From: a virus
Taxonomy: Duplodnaviria; Heunggongvirae; Uroviricota; Caudoviricetes
DNA: 8,772 nt
IMG/VR virus record: IMGVR_UViG_2548876958_000017
Direction: 5' to 3' (one strand)
Made by a program: the position numbers and the translations under genes
The notes under the pieces: model-generated
What the model was told of the DNA's origin: nothing
The model's input: the letters and a program-made list of their open reading frames with translations, nothing else
Databases searched by the model: none
Shown: piece by piece, positions 1,865-8,772 of the stretch
How the letters are laid out: each line of letters opens with the position of its first letter
Numbering within the stretch: position 1 is the stretch's first letter

Positions 1865-2424
1865 GCGTTAGTTTCTCCACAGTCACGACACGCCACGGCG
1901 CCCGGAGCTGCACACTCGCGGGCGTCATTACTTTCTGAAATGCAAAAGATTTTGTAGACCAGTGCTGCATGCTCCTGCAGCTTCGAAATTGAGAGATACA
2001 GCTCGTCGTTAATTGCTGTCTTCTCATGCGGTTCCACCACACCGTCTTCGATTGCCGAACGAATCTGTCTGGAATAACTGCCAATCTGTTCAATGACTTC
2101 CAGCAGGCGCTGGTTAATATCGGCGTTGTCCACATCCTCGACGTCAGGAAGAGACACAAAGACGCCATTTGCAGACTGCGCCACAGCGTCAGCAATGAAG
2201 TGAGTGCCACCAGCACGTTGTAAAATCATTGCCCATCCCAGCGGGAAAATCTGATCGCCATCGGCACGAAGGCGGTTAAATAATGCGTTCTCTGTTACAT
2301 CCAGCCAGTCAGCTGCTTCAGCGTAACCACCCGGCAACTTTGCGATAGTTTTTCTGACAGCTTTCACGTACCACTCAGGCTGTTTTTCTACTTTCCAGTG
2401 ATGCTTACCCACGGTTAGCCTCAT
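1861..2424 (-). CDS. CII-like lysogeny-establishment regulator (187 aa), resembling the phage 186 CII / YdaT-type family
   Basis: It occupies the cII position directly downstream of cro. The segment [37 protein letters not shown] resembles the 186 CII region (...LRNKLNPEQPHQFTPPELWLL...DGFLAQ) from memory. The start is ambiguous: ATG at 2424 has no clear SD, while an in-frame GTG 12 nt downstream has AGG upstream. Confidence 0.55.
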
Positions 2425-2455
2425 CGTTCTGTGGTTAAAAATTGAAAGTGTTCTG

Positions 2456-2656
2456 CTAATCTTTCGGATAGATATCCGGTCTTAAGTCAGATTTCGTAAT
2501 TGCACCTGACGTGCATTGCTCAAGTTTTTTAGCCAGCACAAAACTGGCTTTTTTATAGCCATTGAAAACCAGCCGTAAGTAGCCAGGTGTTGAGCCAACT
2601 TTTCCGGCCAACTCGCCCTGCTGTTCTTTGGTTAAAGAGTCCCAATACGCTTTCAT
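2456..2656 (-). CDS. cro: Cro/YdaS-like HTH regulator (66 aa)
   Basis: It is divergent from the repressor gene. ATG at 2656 is preceded by GGAGG about 10 nt upstream on the minus strand. The sequence MKAYWDSLTKEQQGELAGKVGSTPGYLRLVFNGYKKASFVLAKKLEQCTSGAITKSDLRPDIY has a small HTH typical of YdaS/Cro-like proteins. The longer 167-aa ORF form would overlap the operators and the repressor gene. Confidence 0.8.
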   Translation of the reverse strand: MKAYWDSLTKEQQGELAGKVGSTPGYLRLVFNGYKKASFVLAKKLEQCTSGAITKSDLRPDIYPKD

Positions 2657-2746
2657 ACAATATGTACCTCCGGTGTACATATTACATGATTGAAATGAAC
2701 CTTCAAGATACTTGTACCTTAGCGGTACAAGGGTTTTAATTTCGTT
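2657..2746. promoter_or_regulatory. Divergent pR/pRM-type control region with two palindromic operators (OR)
   Basis: Operator 1 is ATGTACctccggtGTACAT at 2662..2680. Operator 2 is cTTGTACCttagcGGTACAAg at 2711..2731, with perfect 8-bp arms. Candidate pR on the minus strand is -35 TTGAAG (plus coords 2701..2706) and -10 TAATAT (2679..2684). There is no SD before the cI ATG, and TTTAAT at 2735..2740 is consistent with a leaderless pRM transcript. Confidence 0.65.
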
Positions 2747-3421
2747 ATGAAAACAATCCATGACATCCGGCGGTCTAACGCCAGAAAACTGAGAGATGGT
2801 GTTGGCGGGAATTCTTCCTTTGCCACTATGATTGATCGCGAGCCAACCCAGACCAGCAGGTTTATGGGAGATGGGGCTACTAAAAATATCGGTGACAGCA
2901 TGGCACGACACATCGAAAAATGTTTCGACCTGCCTGTCGGATGGCTCGATCAAGAACACCAGACAACGAACATCACAAAAAAACCTGATGTTTCAATCAC
3001 TAATAAACAAATCACATTAGTCCCTGTCATATCATGGGTACAGGCCGGAGCATGGAAAGAAGTTGGATATTCTGAGGTTGATTTGAGCACAGCAGAAACG
3101 TATCCCTGCCCTGTACCCTGTGGGGAAATGACTTATATCTTGCGGGTGATAGGTGATTCAATGATTGATGAGTACCGCCCGGGAGACATGATTTTTGTCG
3201 ATCCTGAAGTACCTGCCTGCCACGGTGACGACGTTATTGCATTGATGCACGATACAGGCGAAACCACCTTCAAAAGGTTGATAGAAGATGGGACACAGCG
3301 TTATCTTAAAGCGTTAAACCCAAACTGGCCTGAGCCTTACATTAAGATCAACGGTAATTGCTCTATAATTGGTACAGTGATTTTCTCCGGAAAACCAAGA
3401 AGATACAAAATCAAAGCCTAA
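2747..3421 (+). CDS. CI-type prophage repressor with a C-terminal S24 (LexA-like) autopeptidase domain (224 aa)
   Basis: The C-terminal domain closely parallels P22 C2 / lambda CI: ...ISWVQAGAWKE..., catalytic-Ser context VIGDSM, and Lys context TFKRL; compare P22 C2 ISWVSAGQW...QGDSM...TFKKL. The N-terminal ~90 aa are a distinct DNA-binding domain. It is divergent from cro across the operator region. Confidence 0.9.
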   Translation: MKTIHDIRRSNARKLRDGVGGNSSFATMIDREPTQTSRFMGDGATKNIGDSMARHIEKCFDLPVGWLDQEHQTTNITKKPDVSITNKQITLVPVISWVQAGAWKEVGYSEVDLSTAETYPCPVPCGEMTYILRVIGDSMIDEYRPGDMIFVDPEVPACHGDDVIALMHDTGETTFKRLIEDGTQRYLKALNPNWPEPYIKINGNCSIIGTVIFSGKPRRYKIKA

Positions 3422-3433
3422 TCAATGTTTATG

Positions 3434-3456
3434 AACCTGCTTCGGCAGGTTTTTTT
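3434..3456 (+). terminator. Rho-independent terminator after the repressor gene
   Basis: Perfect 7-bp stem AACCTGC / GCAGGTT with TTCG loop, followed by a T run (ttttttt), starting 13 nt after the cI stop. Confidence 0.8.
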
Positions 3457-3460
3457 ATAC

Positions 3461-3493
3461 TTGACAATGTACCTTTGAGATACATAATGTACC
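3461..3493 (+). promoter_or_regulatory. pL-type early-left promoter with OL operator
   Basis: -35 TTGACA (3461..3466), 16-nt spacer, -10 CATAAT (3483..3488). Operator-like palindrome ATGTACCTTTGAGATACAT (3467..3485) lies between -35 and -10, and a second ATGTACC half-site is at 3487..3493. Same half-site as in OR. Confidence 0.65.
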
Positions 3494-3592
3494 CAACCGA
3501 AACAACGAACAGGCAGGACGCCCACGAAGTAGCCGCCGGTGGCGTATGAATGACCGGATGATTCGTTAAATACTATGTGTAAGAGAGCGCAA

Positions 3593-3796
3593 ATGAACCG
3601 TTATTTCACATGCTCGTTTTGTGGCGCAAACGAGCTGCAGGCAAAAAAAATCATCGCCAAAGGCGGAAAAGATGAAATTGCTATCTGCTCTGAGTGCGTA
3701 GTCTTGTGTGTCGGGGCATTAATCAATATCAGCACAACTATTCAGTTCACACCAAATGAGAATGCGCCTTTAGATGCGAGGAAATCTGGAGGTTAA
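3593..3796 (+). CDS. Small free-standing ClpX-type C4 zinc-finger (ZBD-like) protein (67 aa)
   Basis: Start ATG at 3593 is preceded by GAGAG; the upstream ATG at 3575 has no SD. YFTCSFCGANELQAKKIIAKGGKDEIAICSECVVLCVGALI aligns with the E. coli ClpX N-terminal zinc-binding domain [37 protein letters not shown] (CSFCG ... IC.ECV.LC, four Cys). Confidence 0.7.
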   Translation: MNRYFTCSFCGANELQAKKIIAKGGKDEIAICSECVVLCVGALINISTTIQFTPNENAPLDARKSGG

Positions 3797-4259: not shown

Positions 4260-4729
4260 AGCCTGAAGTGGTGAAAAGACAGGCACATAACAGCTAAGTA
4301 TTTTCAACCAGAGAGAATCCTTAGCGTTGTGGTGAATGCGGCTCAGCGCACGCGGGTTAAGGTTGAGGCTGACAGTCGACCTTCTGTGGATACCCACCCG
4401 CCTGGTGTGCAACCTTCGCCAGGCACCGGGAGGCACCCGGCACCACAACTTTATGCTGTGTGTAGTCTTGGCGGTACCAGCTTGTACCCTTGCTTCCGGC
4501 TGGTACCGTCCTTTTTACAAAACAGAGAAGAGCATCACCGGACGACGGGCTCATAACCCAATCCATCCGGGCGGCTGCCACCGCAGGTGTTCTTCTCTGT
4601 TTTGTGGAGAAACTAACCGCCCCTACGGGGGCATTTATGGAAATGTAATTGACTCAATAATCGCCGGACGGTGAGGGCCTCCTTTTACCCGAATTCAGCG
4701 CGGTGCAGCGCATATACGTGGAGAACAAA
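4260..4729. other. GC-rich, ORF-poor, hairpin-dense non-coding island (candidate structured RNA or DNA site)
   Basis: Only overlapping ORFs rich in Arg/Gly/Pro and rare codons (AGG, CGG, GGG). 41 of 60 bases at 4381..4440 are G or C, against 22 of 60 at 4081..4140. Perfect 15-bp inverted repeat ACAAAACAGAGAAGA (4517..4531) / TCTTCTCTGTTTTGT (4591..4605); perfect 10-bp inverted repeat CGGTACCAGC (4472..4481) / GCTGGTACCG (4499..4508); further hairpins at 4400..4424, 4426..4440 and 4619..4632. Confidence 0.5.
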
Positions 4730-5924: not shown

Positions 5925-6274
5925 TGGAGCCATACAGCCTCACACTCGATGAGGCCTGTCATTTTCTCAAGATATCCAGACCGACTGCCATTAACTGGAT
6001 ACGCACAGGGCGTCTTCAGGCAACACGCAAAGATCCCACTAAGAATAAATCTCCTTACCTCACAACACGACAAGCCTGCATTGCGGCTCTTCAGTCTCCG
6101 CTGCATACTGTCCAGGTGAGCGCGGGTGATGGCATAACAGAGGAAAGAAAATGTCACTCTTCCGCAGAGGTGAAATATGGTACGCCAGTTTCACATTGCC
6201 GAACGGTAAAAGATTTAAACAGTCTCTTGGAACAAAGGACAAAAGGCAGGCGACAGAACTCCATGACAAGCTAA
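5924..6274 (+). CDS. xis: Excisionase (Xis), P22-type, 116 aa; its 3' end overlaps int by 124 nt
   Basis: ATG 5924 is translationally coupled to the upstream gene, with GAGGTGA as SD. The N-terminal sequence [30 protein letters not shown] is a classic excisionase/AlpA-type HTH. It sits immediately upstream of int. The 116-aa length matches my recollection of P22 Xis. Confidence 0.75.
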
Positions 6275-7314
6275 AGGCTGAAGCATGGCGGGTCAGCAAA
6301 CTTGGTGAAATACCTGATATAACGTTCGAGGAAGCGTGTGTCAGGTGGCTTGAAGAGAAAGCACATAAAAAATCACTGGACGATGACAAAAGCCGGATCG
6401 GATTCTGGCTTCAACATTTCGCAGGAATGCAACTAAGAGACATTACTGAATCAAAAATTTATTCAGCAATGCAGAAAATGACGAACCGGCGTCATGAGGA
6501 AAACTGGAAACTCAGGGCAGAAGCATGCAGAAAAAAAGGGAAACCTGTTCCAGAATACACGCCAAAACCAGCGTCCGTTGCAACGAAGGCTACGCATCTT
6601 TCATTTATAAAGGCCCTACTAAGAGCCGCAGAGCGTGAATGGAAAATGCTGGATAAGGCACCAATTATTAAAGTGCCTCAACCAAAGAATAAACGGATCC
6701 GCTGGCTGGAGCCCCATGAAGCACAAAGGCTGATTGATGAATGTCCGGAGCCATTAAAGTCTGTTGTTGAATTTGCACTGGCAACAGGCTTAAGACGCTC
6801 GAACATCATCAACCTTGAATGGCAACAAATAGATATGCAGCGCCGGGTGGCATGGATAAACCCGGAAGAGAGTAAATCAAACCGCGCAATTGGCGTTGCG
6901 CTGAATGATACTGCATGTCGCGTATTGAAAAAACAAATCGGGAATCATCACCGTTGGGTATTTGTGTACAAGGAAAGCTGTACCAAACCAGACGGAACGA
7001 AAGCGCCAACAGTCAGGAAGATGCGGTATGACGCAAACACAGCCTGGAAAGCGGCGCTGAGACGGGCTGGTATTGATGATTTCAGATTTCACGACTTGAG
7101 ACACACCTGGGCAAGTTGGCTGGTTCAAGCCGGAGTCCCGTTGTCAGTGTTACAGGAAATGGGAGGCTGGGAGTCTATCGAAATGGTTCGTCGATATGCT
7201 CACCTTGCACCTAATCACCTTACCGAACACGCACGGCAAATAGACTCGATCCTGAACCCATCGGTCCCAAATTTGTCCCAGTCAAAAAATAAGGAAGATA
7301 CTAATGATGTGTAA
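6151..7314 (+). CDS. int: Tyrosine site-specific integrase, P22-like (387 aa)
   Basis: SD GAGGAAAG before ATG 6151. The N-terminus [46 protein letters not shown] is nearly identical to P22 Int as I recall it. C-terminal catalytic region has R...HDLRHT...RY ([39 protein letters not shown]). It ends 15 bp from the tRNA 3' end. Confidence 0.95.
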
Positions 7315-7328
7315 CTTATTGATTTAAA

Positions 7329-7404
7329 TGGTGCCGATAATAGGAGTCGAACCTACGACCTTCGCATTACGAATGCGCTGCTCTACCAACTGAGCTATAT
7401 CGGC
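7329..7404 (-). tRNA. thrW: tRNA-Thr (anticodon CGU), with encoded CCA
   Basis: The reverse complement reads GCCGATATAGCTCAGTTGGTAGAGCAGCGCATTCGTAATGCGAAGGTCGTAGGTTCGACTCCTATTATCGGCACCA. It has canonical D-loop (AGCTCAGTTGGTAGAGC), anticodon loop (CATTCGTAATG) and T-loop (GGTTCGACTCC), and a 7-bp acceptor stem (GCCGATA / TATCGGC). Confidence 0.97.
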
Positions 7405-7518: not shown

Positions 7519-8772
7519 TTACGCACGAATGGTGTAATCACCAATGCCGATCCACTTGTAAGTGGTCAGTGCTTCCAGCCCCATTGGGCCACGCGCGTGG
7601 AGTTTTTGTGTGCTTACCGCCACTTCCGCACCCAGACCAAACTGGCCGCCGTCGGTAAAACGCGTAGAGGCGTTAACGTAAACAGCGGACGAATCCACTT
7701 CGTTAACAAAACGCTGGGCGTTGCGCATATCGCGGGTCAGGATCGCATCGGAGTGTTGTGTGCCGTGTTCACGAATATGGGCGATGGCATCGTCAAGATC
7801 GCTGACGATTTTGACGTTCAAATCTAATGACAGAAACTCATCGTCATACTCTTCGGCTTTAACAGCAACCACCTTCGCAGGGCCTGCCTGCAACTGCGCC
7901 AGTGCAGCTGCATCTGCGTGTAATGTCACGCCGCTTTCCGCCATTTGTTTGCTTAATGCGGGCAGGAAGCTATCGGCGATGTTTTTATTCACCAGCAACG
8001 TTTCAACCGTATTACATGTGCTCGGACGCTGAGTTTTCGCGTTGACGATCACTTTTAATGCTTCAGCGATCTCTACACTTTCATCAACGTAAATATGGCA
8101 TACGCCTATACCACCTGTGATCACCGGGATTGTCGACTGTTCACGGCACAGTTTATGCAAACCAGCGCCACCACGCGGGATCAGCATGTCGATGTATTTA
8201 TCCATACGCAGCATTTCACTGACCAGCGCACGGTCAGGATTATCAATCGCCTGCACGGCACCCGCCGGTAAGCCGCAGGATTTCAGGGCGTCCTGAATCA
8301 CCGCCACCGTTGCAGCGTTAGTGCGACACGTTTCTTTGCCACCGCGCAGGATCACCGCATTACCGGTTTTCAGGCACAGCGAAGCGACATCAACCGTCAC
8401 GTTCGGGCGCGCTTCATAAATCACGCCAATAACCCCCAGCGGTACGCGACGACGCTCAAGACGCAGGCCGCTGTCCAGTACGCTGCCATCGATTACCTGC
8501 CCCACCGGATCGGCGAGGTTACACACCTGGCGCACATCATCGGCAATGCCTTTCAGCCGTGCGGGCGTCAGTGCCAGACGGTCAAGCATCGCTTCGCCAA
8601 GGCCATTGGCACGCGCGTCAGCAACATCCTGGGCGTTAGCGTTGAGGATGATTTCGCTTTGTGCTTCCAGTTCATCGGCGATTTTTTCCAGCACGCGATT
8701 TTTTTCGCGGCTGGAGAGTTGCGCTAATTTATACGAGGCTTGCTTCGCGGCAATGCCCATTTGTTCCAGCAT
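7519..8772 (-). CDS. proA: Gamma-glutamyl phosphate reductase (glutamate-5-semialdehyde dehydrogenase), 417 aa
   Basis: Full-length ORF whose translation ([30 protein letters not shown] ... [15 protein letters not shown]) I recognise as Escherichia coli ProA. The start codon is the last three bases of the window, so upstream context is absent. Confidence 0.95.

Follow-up and report, generated by a model that had tools for sequence, protein, structure and literature searches.

Operator architecture and a candidate leader RNA in a probable immunity region of the SfV/e14 type

Immunity modules of one closely related kind are carried by the defective prophage e14 of Escherichia coli K-12, in which the repressor and Cro genes are called ymfK/cohE and ymfT/croE, and by the Shigella flexneri phages SfV and SfIV, in which they are called cI and cro. 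The repressor, Cro and their binding sites are said to have been identified by sequence analysis, for SfV in the genome description of Allison et al. 2002 and for e14 in the analysis of Mehta, Casjens & Krishnaswamy 2004. Two other switches are useful for comparison. In phage lambda the OR sites are spaced 24 and 23 bp apart. Rep of Salmonella phage SPC32H is reportedly induced through an antirepressor and not by self-cleavage, a result attributed to Kim et al. 2016. The GenBank record of SfV labels the segment corresponding to positions 2662-2730 of the DNA studied here as “putative operator region”, and phages of the SfV type reportedly have no N, cII or cIII (PMC3851460). The searchable literature yielded neither footprint, EMSA or ChIP data for the repressor or Cro nor binding-site experiments for ymfK, cohE, croE, ymfT or the SfV operators.

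The window, by which we mean the whole stretch of 8,772 nt from a virus of the Caudoviricetes (IMG/VR record IMGVR_UViG_2548876958_000017), contains a close relative of these modules. Over positions 2400-3600 (97% covered) the nucleotide identity is 98.2% to ymfK/ymfT of K-12 e14 and 97.3% to SfV. From cro through OR, cI and the terminator to pL the nucleotide identity is 97–98%; e14, SfV and SfIV share with the window its five predicted operator sites, its three promoters and the start of a leaderless repressor mRNA, and it is very likely that the interval is the immunity region of a lambdoid prophage of the SfV/e14 type, with a repressor/operator switch as the best explanation of its contents. 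The few single-base differences from e14 and SfV in the OR and OL alignments fall mainly in operator spacers: position 2722 is G in the window, A in e14 and T in SfV and phage Ayreon; the right half of OR1 reads GTGTACA in the window and e14 and ATATACA in SfV and Ayreon; and the spacer of OL2 is CAACC in the window and CAAGA in e14 and SfV. The surrounding modules are not the same: the prophage of the window is located at tRNA-Thr(CGU) beside proA, and e14 in icd. Modules of the e14/SfV type, matched over at least 80% of their length, are present in 1324 of 5426 complete E. coli genomes, about a quarter, K-12 among them. A first-pass annotation, made by a model from the letters alone, had described the operators and the leaderless repressor gene; its reading is correct and its operators are real, but it missed that they belong to the known e14/SfV immunity type. 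The module is already known and not new, because of the SfV annotation, the sequence identity, a published table of transcription start sites and what the two earlier sequence analyses are said to contain.

Three dyads are found within the 90-bp spacer that separates the divergent cro-like gene (2456-2656, minus strand) and repressor gene (2747-3421, plus strand, 224 aa). Two palindromes of 19–21 bp had been described here; both are present at those places, OR1 at 2663-2679 (TGTACCTCCGGTGTACA) and OR3 at 2713-2729 (TGTACCTTAGCGGTACA), but the count of two is very probably too low: a weak candidate third operator, OR2 at 2696-2712 (TGAACCTTCAAGATACT), which directly abuts OR3, had been overlooked. 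The size also needs correction: the conserved core of the family is 17 bp, TGTACC-N5-GGTACA, and the flanking bases through which the sites appear to be 19–23 bp long, as in the extended dyads ATATGTAC..GTACATAT of OR1 (2660-2682) and CTTGTACC..GGTACAAG of OR3 (2711-2731), are not conserved in relatives. OR3 is a perfect dyad centred at -26, in the interval from the -35 to the -10 of the repressor promoter pRM, and across 29 distinct OR regions its half-sites carry 1.84 bits per position versus 0.33 in the spacer. The length of the OR cassette (67 bp) and the registers of its sites are kept in 29 distinct relatives whose repressor identity ranges from 100% down to 43%, and this length is frozen across phages of Enterobacterales, Halomonadaceae and Pseudomonas. 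The pitch of the sites is 33 bp from OR1 to OR2, 17 bp from OR2 to OR3 and 20 bp from OL1 to OL2.

The cro-like gene is a YdaS/HTH_3-like open reading frame of 66 aa with weak Pfam matches to YdaS_toxin and HTH_3; it is the orthologue of e14 ymfT/croE and of SfV cro, and the annotations at the same place are ymfT in K-12 and cro in SfV. For its promoter pR we propose, from the sequence, a -10 TAATAT at 2679-2684 and a -35 TTGAAG at 2701-2706 (both on the minus strand, separated by a 16-nt spacer), which together have 8/12 consensus matches and lie below the threshold of the promoter scanner. The last T of the -10 is also the first base of OR1, and this register reads TAATAT, CATAAT, TATAAT, TAGAAT, GACAAT or GATAAT in relatives, which also conserve CAAG (CTTG on the minus strand) inside OR2. 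Relative to the proposed pR, OR1 extends from about -7 to +10; OR2 contains the -35 of pR and has its centre at -43 from the pRM start. Both pR and pRM received no call in the promoter scan and were placed by hand and by conservation, pRM also by a mapped start site; the start points of pR (about 2672, minus strand) and pL (about 3494-3496, plus strand) are putative. The spacer of OR1 contains CCTCC (2667-2671), the reverse complement of the cro Shine-Dalgarno sequence GGAGG, and OR1 with its CCTCC is conserved in 31/31 relatives, with a register peak of 11.0/12. This location of the cro Shine-Dalgarno sequence inside OR1 had escaped the first-pass annotation.

The leftward promoter pL (3461-3488, plus strand) consists of TTGACA at 3461-3466, a 16-nt spacer and CATAAT at 3483-3488, with 11/12 consensus matches in the promoter scan; a promoter is annotated at this place in phage Ayreon, and pL is conserved along with OL1 in loci L004-L030. 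As had been described, a member of the palindrome family lies inside pL between the two hexamers: OL1 (3468-3484, TGTACCTTTGAGATACA) starts 2 nt past the -35 hexamer, overlaps the -10 by 2 nt and is conserved in relatives, with a variable spacer. An “extra half-site”, TGTACC at 3488-3493, is likewise present, but it is actually the left half of a conserved 17-bp site, the candidate second operator OL2 (3488-3504, TGTACCCAACCGAAACA), of which the left half is strong and the right half weak (G-N-A-A-C-A here; GATACA or GTTACA in some relatives). Most Enterobacterales relatives have OL2 in an unchanged register, and L008, L012 and L027-L029 lack it; the register of OL2 relative to the -10 of pL is the same as that of OR1 relative to the -10 of pR.

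The repressor consists of an N-terminal helix-turn-helix domain, a disordered linker and a C-terminal S24 autopeptidase (Pfam Peptidase_S24, 1.5e-26). Its AlphaFold model has helices at residues 4-19, 22-28, 33-40 and 50-59, followed by the S24 fold, and the best fold match is the lambda repressor 3bdn; Ala100-Gly101, Ser138 and Lys176 align with A111-G112, S149 and K192 of lambda, and the protein probably cleaves itself. It is 100% identical to SfIV cI, and its residues 1-73 are 100% identical to those of SfIV, Ayreon and 2H10 and 98.6% identical to those of SfV and cdtI; the DNA-binding domain is the same, and the immunity specificity would therefore be the same too.

No start codon earlier than the ATG at 2747 is possible in the repressor frame, and this ATG has no Shine-Dalgarno sequence, in agreement with the first-pass annotation, which had also pointed to a TTTAAT hexamer about 7 nt upstream; the hexamer is found at 2735-2740, six bases (TTCGTT) before the ATG. 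It forms the -10 of pRM (2712-2740, plus strand), with a -35 TTGTAC at 2712-2717 and a 17-nt spacer, and a -10-like hexamer (TnTAAT, TAGAAT or TCAAAT) precedes the ATG by 6–9 nt in all relatives. The leaderless start has been shown experimentally for the e14 orthologue, the ymfK transcript beginning at the A of the ATG (gene start 1202156, TSS 1202156, leader 0 in dRNA-seq; Romero et al., 2014, PMC4681348, Table S3), and from OR2 to past the ATG e14 and the window differ at a single base, which lies in the OR3 spacer. The repressor transcript has an intrinsic terminator at 3433-3458 (plus strand), a GC hairpin plus T-run that is conserved in relatives and annotated at the equivalent place in SfV as a putative rho-independent terminator.

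A switch built from these parts would operate as follows. Repressor dimers, and presumably also Cro, would recognise the 17-bp dyads. At OR1 the bound protein would cover the -10/+1 of pR, with the ribosome-binding site of cro in the operator spacer; at OR2 it would cover the pR -35 and occupy the place that CI uses in lambda to activate pRM; and at OR3, inside the pRM core promoter, it should autorepress pRM, whose leaderless transcript would run from the A of the ATG to the hairpin at 3433-3458. At pL, where OL1 fills the spacer and OL2 covers the +1, bound repressor would occlude RNA polymerase, and RecA activated in the SOS response would bring about self-cleavage at Ala100-Gly101 and thereby derepress pR and pL. 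Within this scheme, the assignment of proteins to sites, the order in which the sites fill and any activation from OR2 are inferred.

Several features resemble lambda. The repressor and cro genes are divergent with a short multi-operator region between them; the repressor combines a helix-turn-helix domain with an S24 autopeptidase that has the Ala-Gly site and the Ser/Lys dyad; the predicted operators are 17-bp dyads, three at OR and others at OL, overlapping pR, pRM and pL; one OR site is located about 42–43 bp upstream of the pRM start; and the repressor mRNA begins at the AUG, as mapped in the e14 orthologue. Other features differ from lambda: the half-site is TGTACC, the OR sites are spaced 33 and 17 bp apart, OR2 and OR3 abut (17 bp being about 1.6 helical turns), the best dyad is on pRM rather than on pR, OR1 encloses the cro Shine-Dalgarno sequence, no more than two sites can be seen at OL, and the DNA-binding domain has no sequence similarity to that of lambda. 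Because of this layout, with its best dyad on pRM and its abutting OR2 and OR3, lambda-style cooperativity between OR1 and OR2 and activation from OR2 cannot simply be assumed.

The closest solved structure to the N-terminal domain of the repressor is that of SPC32H Rep (PDB 5D50, Rep-Ant complex; 38% identity to 5d50_K, rmsd 2.0 over 73 aligned columns). Upstream of SPC32H rep there are 17-bp dyads, TTACC-N5-GGTAA, with the same 6-5-6 geometry and, as here, one site plus two directly abutting sites, the start-to-start distances being 30 and 17 bp. The half-site is TTACC in SPC32H and GTACC here, and the recognition helix is SQNLVNR in SPC32H and TQTSR here. The C-terminal domain of Rep serves tetramerisation and antirepressor binding, whereas here it is Peptidase_S24, and therefore our repressor is not a member of the SPC32H Rep type. 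Still, the same operators might follow a logic other than that of lambda, in which tight negative autoregulation is the main effect, OR2 and OR3 are bound as one unit by a repressor tetramer (as proposed for SPC32H Rep) or in a mutually exclusive manner, and OR1 is filled separately. This is consistent with OR3 being the only perfect 12/12 dyad and overlapping the pRM -35, with the rigidly conserved pitches of 17 and 33 bp, and with the 30 + 17 spacing in SPC32H, to whose Rep the N-terminal domain is a structural homologue. We consider it unlikely, however, as the C-terminal domain is of the lambda-like S24 kind and not the one by which SPC32H Rep tetramerises, the detected TSS shows that pRM is active in e14 lysogens of K-12, and OR2 stands at the activating position of the lambda type. 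A rigid “1 + 2 abutting sites” OR cassette working by a non-lambda cooperative mode could nevertheless be a feature of this locus, as the weaker novel reading.

The number of OR sites can be questioned as well. If OR had only two sites, 2696-2712 would be merely the -35 and spacer of pR and the TGTACC at 3488 an isolated half-site without function, which we regard as improbable. In a position weight matrix built from OR3-type sites, whose ranking says nothing about real affinities, OR3 scores 22.9 bits, OL1 21.8, OL2 10.6 and OR2 8.7; the order OR3 > OL1 > OR1 > OL2 > OR2 was rejected as evidence of affinity, given the origin of the matrix. The scores of OR2 and OL2 are individually not significant, the best site in shuffled windows reaching that of OR2 in 63/200 cases and that of OL2 in 26/200, and a site at 3112-3128 inside the repressor gene, with 8.8 bits, was judged to be a chance match. 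Moreover, the CAAG inside OR2 is explicable by the pR -35 alone, and OL2 is missing in the loci named above. Against two sites stands first the left half of OR2, which is conserved (TGAACC, and TGTACC in several lineages) although it lies within the sequence-indifferent pR spacer. The register of OR2 is fixed in 29 distinct relatives, reading TG(A/T)ACC..CAAGGTAC, and forms a clear third peak in the register profile (8.0/12 versus a background of at most 5.9). In Rosenbergiella both halves of OR2 have changed together, giving the perfect palindrome AGTTCCTTCAAGGAACT (AGTTCC-N5-GGAACT). Such a pair of abutting sites also occurs in SPC32H, and most relatives keep the ACA with which OL2 ends in a fixed register. 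OR2 also has 83% identity to the OL1 region. OR2 and OL2, weak by score, are candidate operators by positional conservation only.

That the dyads act as RNA hairpins or terminators, and not as protein-binding DNA, is hardly credible. The terminator scan does list 2711-2731, which is followed by GGTTTTAATT, but the stems are invariant and never covary while the loops vary, which is the signature of sequence-specific DNA recognition; in addition, the T-run is not conserved in relatives, a rightward transcript entering 2711-2731 from upstream is not expected, and the same dyad recurs inside pL. An intrinsic terminator at 2711-2731 was rejected for the lack of stem covariation and of a conserved T-run. 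Chance short palindromes in AT-rich intergenic DNA can practically be dismissed, for although TGTAC-N7-GTACA with 2 mismatches allowed occurs 5 times versus 3.0 expected, which is not significant, with at most one mismatch it occurs 3 times in the window versus 0.16 expected (0/200 shuffles), all three in the promoter regions of cro/repressor and pL, and the sites are conserved across genera.

A single operator grammar at OR and OL, as first proposed from the letters, is borne out by this motif excess, by conservation and by co-variation with the recognition helix. Where phage repressors from Pseudomonas and Vibrio have this “TQ.SR” helix, TGTAC-N7-GTACA is found upstream of them, and the cassette also stands before a Pseudomonas phage regulator whose relationship to our repressor is confined to the N-terminal domain (59% identity). 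No GTAC dyads were found upstream of BP-4795 cI and Ralstonia RSK1, whose distant N-terminal domains served as negative controls; these two and SPC32H Rep have other recognition helices and other repeats. The operator assignment is a well-supported prediction.

Next to the operators, and outside the claims of the first-pass annotation, is a structured RNA that forms the 5′ leader of the pL transcript (3500-3569, plus strand), with helix P1 at 3505-3509/3562-3566, a hairpin at 3512-3514/3520-3522 and helix P2 at 3536-3540/3553-3557. The RNA is about 65 nt long; two of its helices covary, its core, GCCCACGAAGUAGCCGC, is invariant, and its start overlaps the last bases of OL2. Among 88 distinct sequences, 97.5% of cells are paired versus 21–44% in slid controls, 9 of the 13 pairs have compensatory changes, and the covariance model score is 94.7 bits. 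At least 88 distinct phage contexts have it right where early leftward transcripts begin, among them the unrelated-repressor phages ST64B, SfII, ZF40 and mEp460 as well as T5-like Providencia phages. Rfam returned no family for it at gathering and E-value thresholds, and its literal sequence had no match in the searchable literature. An antiterminator RNA of the HK022 put type was rejected: BLAST against HK022 at 24-31 kb, the pL/pR region, found no similarity between the leader RNA and put, and the covariance-model search gave a single copy each in SfV, e14 and the window, with no further one downstream of pR, and no match in HK022. The RNA could perhaps be an undescribed cis-acting leader, possibly a signal for antitermination, stability or processing in lambdoid phages without N, or a small RNA derived from the 5′ end.

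The finding as first written re-derives the regulatory anatomy of a widespread E. coli module and in itself matters little. The operators leave little room for novelty, and the pL leader RNA is the item likeliest to repay experiments. The practical value of the module is as a specificity label for prophages: those with these predicted operators should be homo-immune with e14, SfV, SfIV, cdtI and several Stx2c phages. Potentially useful are the comparative results, namely the tripartite OR, the frozen 67-bp cassette and the operator geometry common to SPC32H Rep, which together provide a natural variant set for dissecting recognition by this family of helix-turn-helix proteins.

The immunity region of the window is a module that is already known, as cohE/croE in the defective prophage e14 of E. 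coli K-12 and as cI/cro in the Shigella phage SfV; its operator region has been annotated and its leaderless start mapped. Positions 2400–3600 share 98.2% identity with the ymfL-ymfT-ymfK stretch of e14 (ymfT is cro and ymfK the repressor gene) and 97–98% with the cI/cro region of SfV and SfIV; further matches include phage cdtI and several Stx2c phages. At least 80% of this region is present in 1324 of 5426 complete E. coli genomes, and the window repressor is 100% identical to SfIV cI. In the SfV GenBank record, a “putative operator region” maps to window 2662–2730 and a terminator to 3434–3458. Binding sites of the module were reportedly predicted in both the SfV paper (2002) and the e14 paper (2004), and no binding experiment for these operators was found in the literature searched.

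The first-pass annotation is a correct, ordinary reading of this region. Its central claim, that one operator family serves both OR, between cro (2456–2656, minus strand) and the repressor gene (2747–3421, plus strand), and OL, at the promoter pL of the leftward early operon, holds with all named features present. A repeat search of the window returned four copies of 17–18 nt in one register (at 2663, 2713, 3468, and 3488), and TGTAC-N7-GTACA with at most one mismatch has three matches (2663–2679, 2713–2729, and 3468–3484) against 0.16 expected (0/200 shuffles), a count that loses significance when two mismatches are allowed. Both palindromes placed between cro and the repressor gene, here OR1 (2663–2679) and OR3 (2713–2729), are present, but the middle site OR2 (2696–2712) had been missed; in the window it reads TGAACCTTCAAGATACT and is weak (8.7 bits), and it is nearer the consensus in relatives. 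OL1 (3468–3484) fills the pL spacer and overlaps CATAAT by two bases. The hexamer TGTACC itself occurs 14 times on both strands of the whole window versus 2.5 expected (0/200 shuffles), and around the nine copies outside the five operators (1764, 1809, 3037, 3112, 3371, 4483, 5304, 5498, and 6979) no good full site was found.

The layout was compared across relatives. A protein search gave repressor homologues from 90% to about 40% identity, in which the putative recognition helix “PTQ.SR” is nearly invariant (alignment of 25 homologues), and a genome scan gave 31 loci that encode both domains of the repressor, in a range reaching from Escherichia to Halomonas, Salinicola, and Phytohalomonas. 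One layout lies upstream of the repressor gene in all 31: the cro start codon; site A (OR1), TGTACCTCC-nnn-GTACA, always containing the complement of the cro GGAGG; a 16-nt linker whose first bases form a -10 hexamer on the cro strand; site B (OR2), TG(A/T)ACC-nn-CAAG-GTAC-T; directly abutting it, site C (OR3), TGTACC-N5-GGTACA; and then 4–6 nt, a -10-like hexamer, 6–9 nt, and the repressor ATG. The cassette is exactly 67 nt long in 29/29 distinct cassettes. A register scan against TGTACC-N5-GGTACA gave three peaks (11.0, 8.0, and 11.3 out of 12), where the background never exceeded 5.9; OR therefore has three sites. Site C carries 1.84 bits per position in its half-sites versus 0.33 in its spacer (29 distinct cassettes), and such conserved halves with a free spacer are what one expects of a dyad that a protein recognises, whereas an RNA stem would show the reverse pattern. 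In OR1, three of the five spacer bases are invariant in all relatives because the cro Shine-Dalgarno sequence (GGAGG, minus strand; window 2667–2671) occupies that spacer, and the cro leader would be only about 16–18 nt. In Rosenbergiella (two loci, L028 and L029), OR2 is changed on both halves to the perfect palindrome AGTTCCTTCAAGGAACT and the right half of OR1 is GGAACA, which hints that half-site preference has drifted in this lineage.

Downstream of the repressor gene, the order kept in Enterobacterales relatives is terminator hairpin, TTGACA, OL1 overlapped by CATAAT, and TGTACC-N5-G-N-A-A-C-A. The TGTACC at 3488, first described as an extra half-site, is therefore real but forms the strong half of OL2 (3488–3504), a weak second operator whose register relative to the pL -10 matches that of site A relative to the pR -10. 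When the window, e14, SfV, and phage Ayreon are aligned, nearly all differences in OR and OL fall within operator spacers.

The repressor promoter pRM (plus strand) has TTGTAC at 2712–2717, a 17-nt spacer, and TTTAAT at 2735–2740. The repressor ATG (2747), the first possible start in frame, follows TTTAAT after six bases with no Shine-Dalgarno sequence upstream, much as first described (about 7 nt). In K-12, ymfK is among only five leaderless mRNAs, with gene start and transcription start both at 1202156 and a leader length of 0 (Romero et al., 2014, Table S3; PMC4681348). Since the window differs from e14 over the pRM stretch by a single OR3 spacer base, the proposed leaderless start is experimentally established for the e14-type module. 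The cro promoter pR (minus strand) was placed by hand, with predicted hexamers TTGAAG (2706–2701) and TAATAT (2684–2679) 16 nt apart; conservation supports this placement, as relatives have TAATAT, CATAAT, TATAAT, and similar in the -10 register and keep CTTG in the -35. With this predicted pR, OR1 would span about -7 to +10 and OR2 would cover the -35, while relative to the pRM start OR2, OR3, and OR1 are centred at -43, -26, and -76. The promoter pL is near-consensus (TTGACA 3461–3466, 16 nt, CATAAT 3483–3488), and the Ayreon record annotates a promoter at this position.

The repressor carries Peptidase_S24 (Pfam) at residues 93–212. Its AlphaFold model (mean pLDDT 78) has a four-helix N-terminal domain (4–59) including a helix-turn-helix, a disordered linker (73–86), and the S24 fold; its best fold match is full-length lambda repressor, and Ala100-Gly101, Ser138, and Lys176 align with the lambda cleavage site and catalytic dyad. 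The e14 repressor is described in the literature as SOS-sensitive. A lambda-type switch is the best explanation, in which repressor on OR1 and OR2 would block pR, repressor on OL1 and OL2 would block pL, OR3 would serve autoregulation of pRM, OR2 may activate pRM, and RecA-stimulated self-cleavage would lift repression. A different, non-lambda mode of cooperative binding at OR is unlikely. Real differences from lambda are that the sole perfect dyad is on pRM, that OR2 directly adjoins OR3 (17-bp pitch), that the cro ribosome-binding site is embedded in OR1, and that just two OL sites are visible. For that reason occupancy order, cooperativity, and activation within the lambda-type switch are what we infer.

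A conserved element at 3500–3569 (plus strand), at the head of the pL transcript, overlaps the last bases of OL2. It consists of an outer helix (3505–3509 with 3562–3566), a small GGC/GCC hairpin, the invariant stretch GCCCACGAAGUAGCCGC, and an inner helix (3536–3540 with 3553–3557) closing a 12-nt loop, GGCRUAUGAAnn; the core matches at least 120 IMG/VR contigs. Across 88 distinct sequences, 97.5% of pair cells hold standard pairs versus 21–44% with slid partners, and compensatory changes were seen in 9 of the 13 pairs. Covariation scored 0.56, against at most 0.12 in controls, and 0/500 shuffles reached that value. This is evidence for a real RNA structure with two covarying helices. The number of distinct phage contexts is at least 88, and these include positions behind the unrelated repressor genes of ST64B, ZF40, SfII, mEp460, and mEp237 as well as the terminal repeat of T5-like Providencia phages. 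Its start usually lies 37–49 nt beyond a TTGAC, and so at the 5′ end of the transcript. There is one copy per immunity region and none behind pR, no Rfam family covers it, no literal match was found in the literature searched, and it has no similarity to the HK022 put region. It is a candidate cis-acting leader or a candidate 5′-derived small RNA, and the former would suit phages of SfV type, which are reported to be without N (PMC3851460).

The window covers the right-hand end of a lambdoid prophage. On the minus strand lie a PerC-like gene (84–578), an O-like replication gene (575–1516; 313 aa, HTH_36/DnaD_N-like), and a CII(CP76)-like gene (1861–2424); within the replication gene, about four tandem 15-nt repeats of CAGATTTTGACGGGT (1144–1207) look like origin iterons. 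The leftward early operon follows the repressor gene and precedes the integrase, and its first ORF (3575–3796, plus strand; 73 aa) encodes a ClpX-type C4 zinc finger (Pfam zf-C4_ClpX, 7.4e-10), unlike e14 ymfJ and SfV orf33 at the same position. A non-coding stretch of about 440 nt contains a match to the Rfam Gammaproteobacterial sRNA STnc100 (4296–4519, plus strand; 43.4 bits, E = 9e-8, just under the gathering score of 47), and a faint DicF-like match lies at 4457–4511. A very long near-perfect hairpin follows (4512–4610, plus strand; arms ACAAAACAGAGAAGA at 4517–4531 and TCTTCTCTGTTTTGT at 4591–4605; fold of 4505–4640, -63 kcal/mol), and with the small T-tailed GC hairpin after it (4619–4632) it looks like a structured RNA or a terminator. 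The prophage/host junction comprises a tyrosine integrase (6151–7314; 387 aa), tRNA-Thr(CGU) (7329–7404, minus strand), and host proA (7519–8772, on the strand opposite to the integrase). Here the module belongs to a prophage inserted at a tRNA-Thr site; in e14 it is located at icd.

Among solved structures, the N-terminal domain of Rep from Salmonella phage SPC32H (5d50; 38% identity, rmsd 2.0, 73 aligned columns) is the one nearest to the N-terminal, DNA-binding domain of the window repressor. Upstream of SPC32H rep (34452–34389 of its locus) are three ATTACC-N5-GGTAAT dyads of the same 6-5-6 geometry, one site and two abutting (start-to-start 30 and 17 bp), the same “1 + 2” layout as in the window. 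Further copies are found downstream of rep and in other places; the 38.7-kb genome contains 12 sites of this type when a GGTGA right half is allowed. As specificity controls, no TGTAC-type dyads accompany BP-4795 cI (helix SPSQLTQ), Ralstonia RSK1, or SPC32H Rep, and in a Vibrio phage homologue TGTAC-N7-GTACA occupies the position of site C. The 263-aa regulator of Pseudomonas phage vB_Pae_BR133a shares the N-terminal domain alone (59% identity, same recognition helix) and differs in its C-terminal part, and it is preceded, at about 1115–1200 of its locus, by the same three-site cassette (TGTACCTCCTGGGTACA, 17 nt, ATGTACCGTCAAGGTTC, TGTACATTTCTGGTACA). The same helix is found with the same dyads and other helices with other repeats, and thus the operator grammar tracks the DNA-binding domain; judging by the Pseudomonas phage, this domain and its operator cassette appear to travel as a unit, whatever the C-terminal domain.
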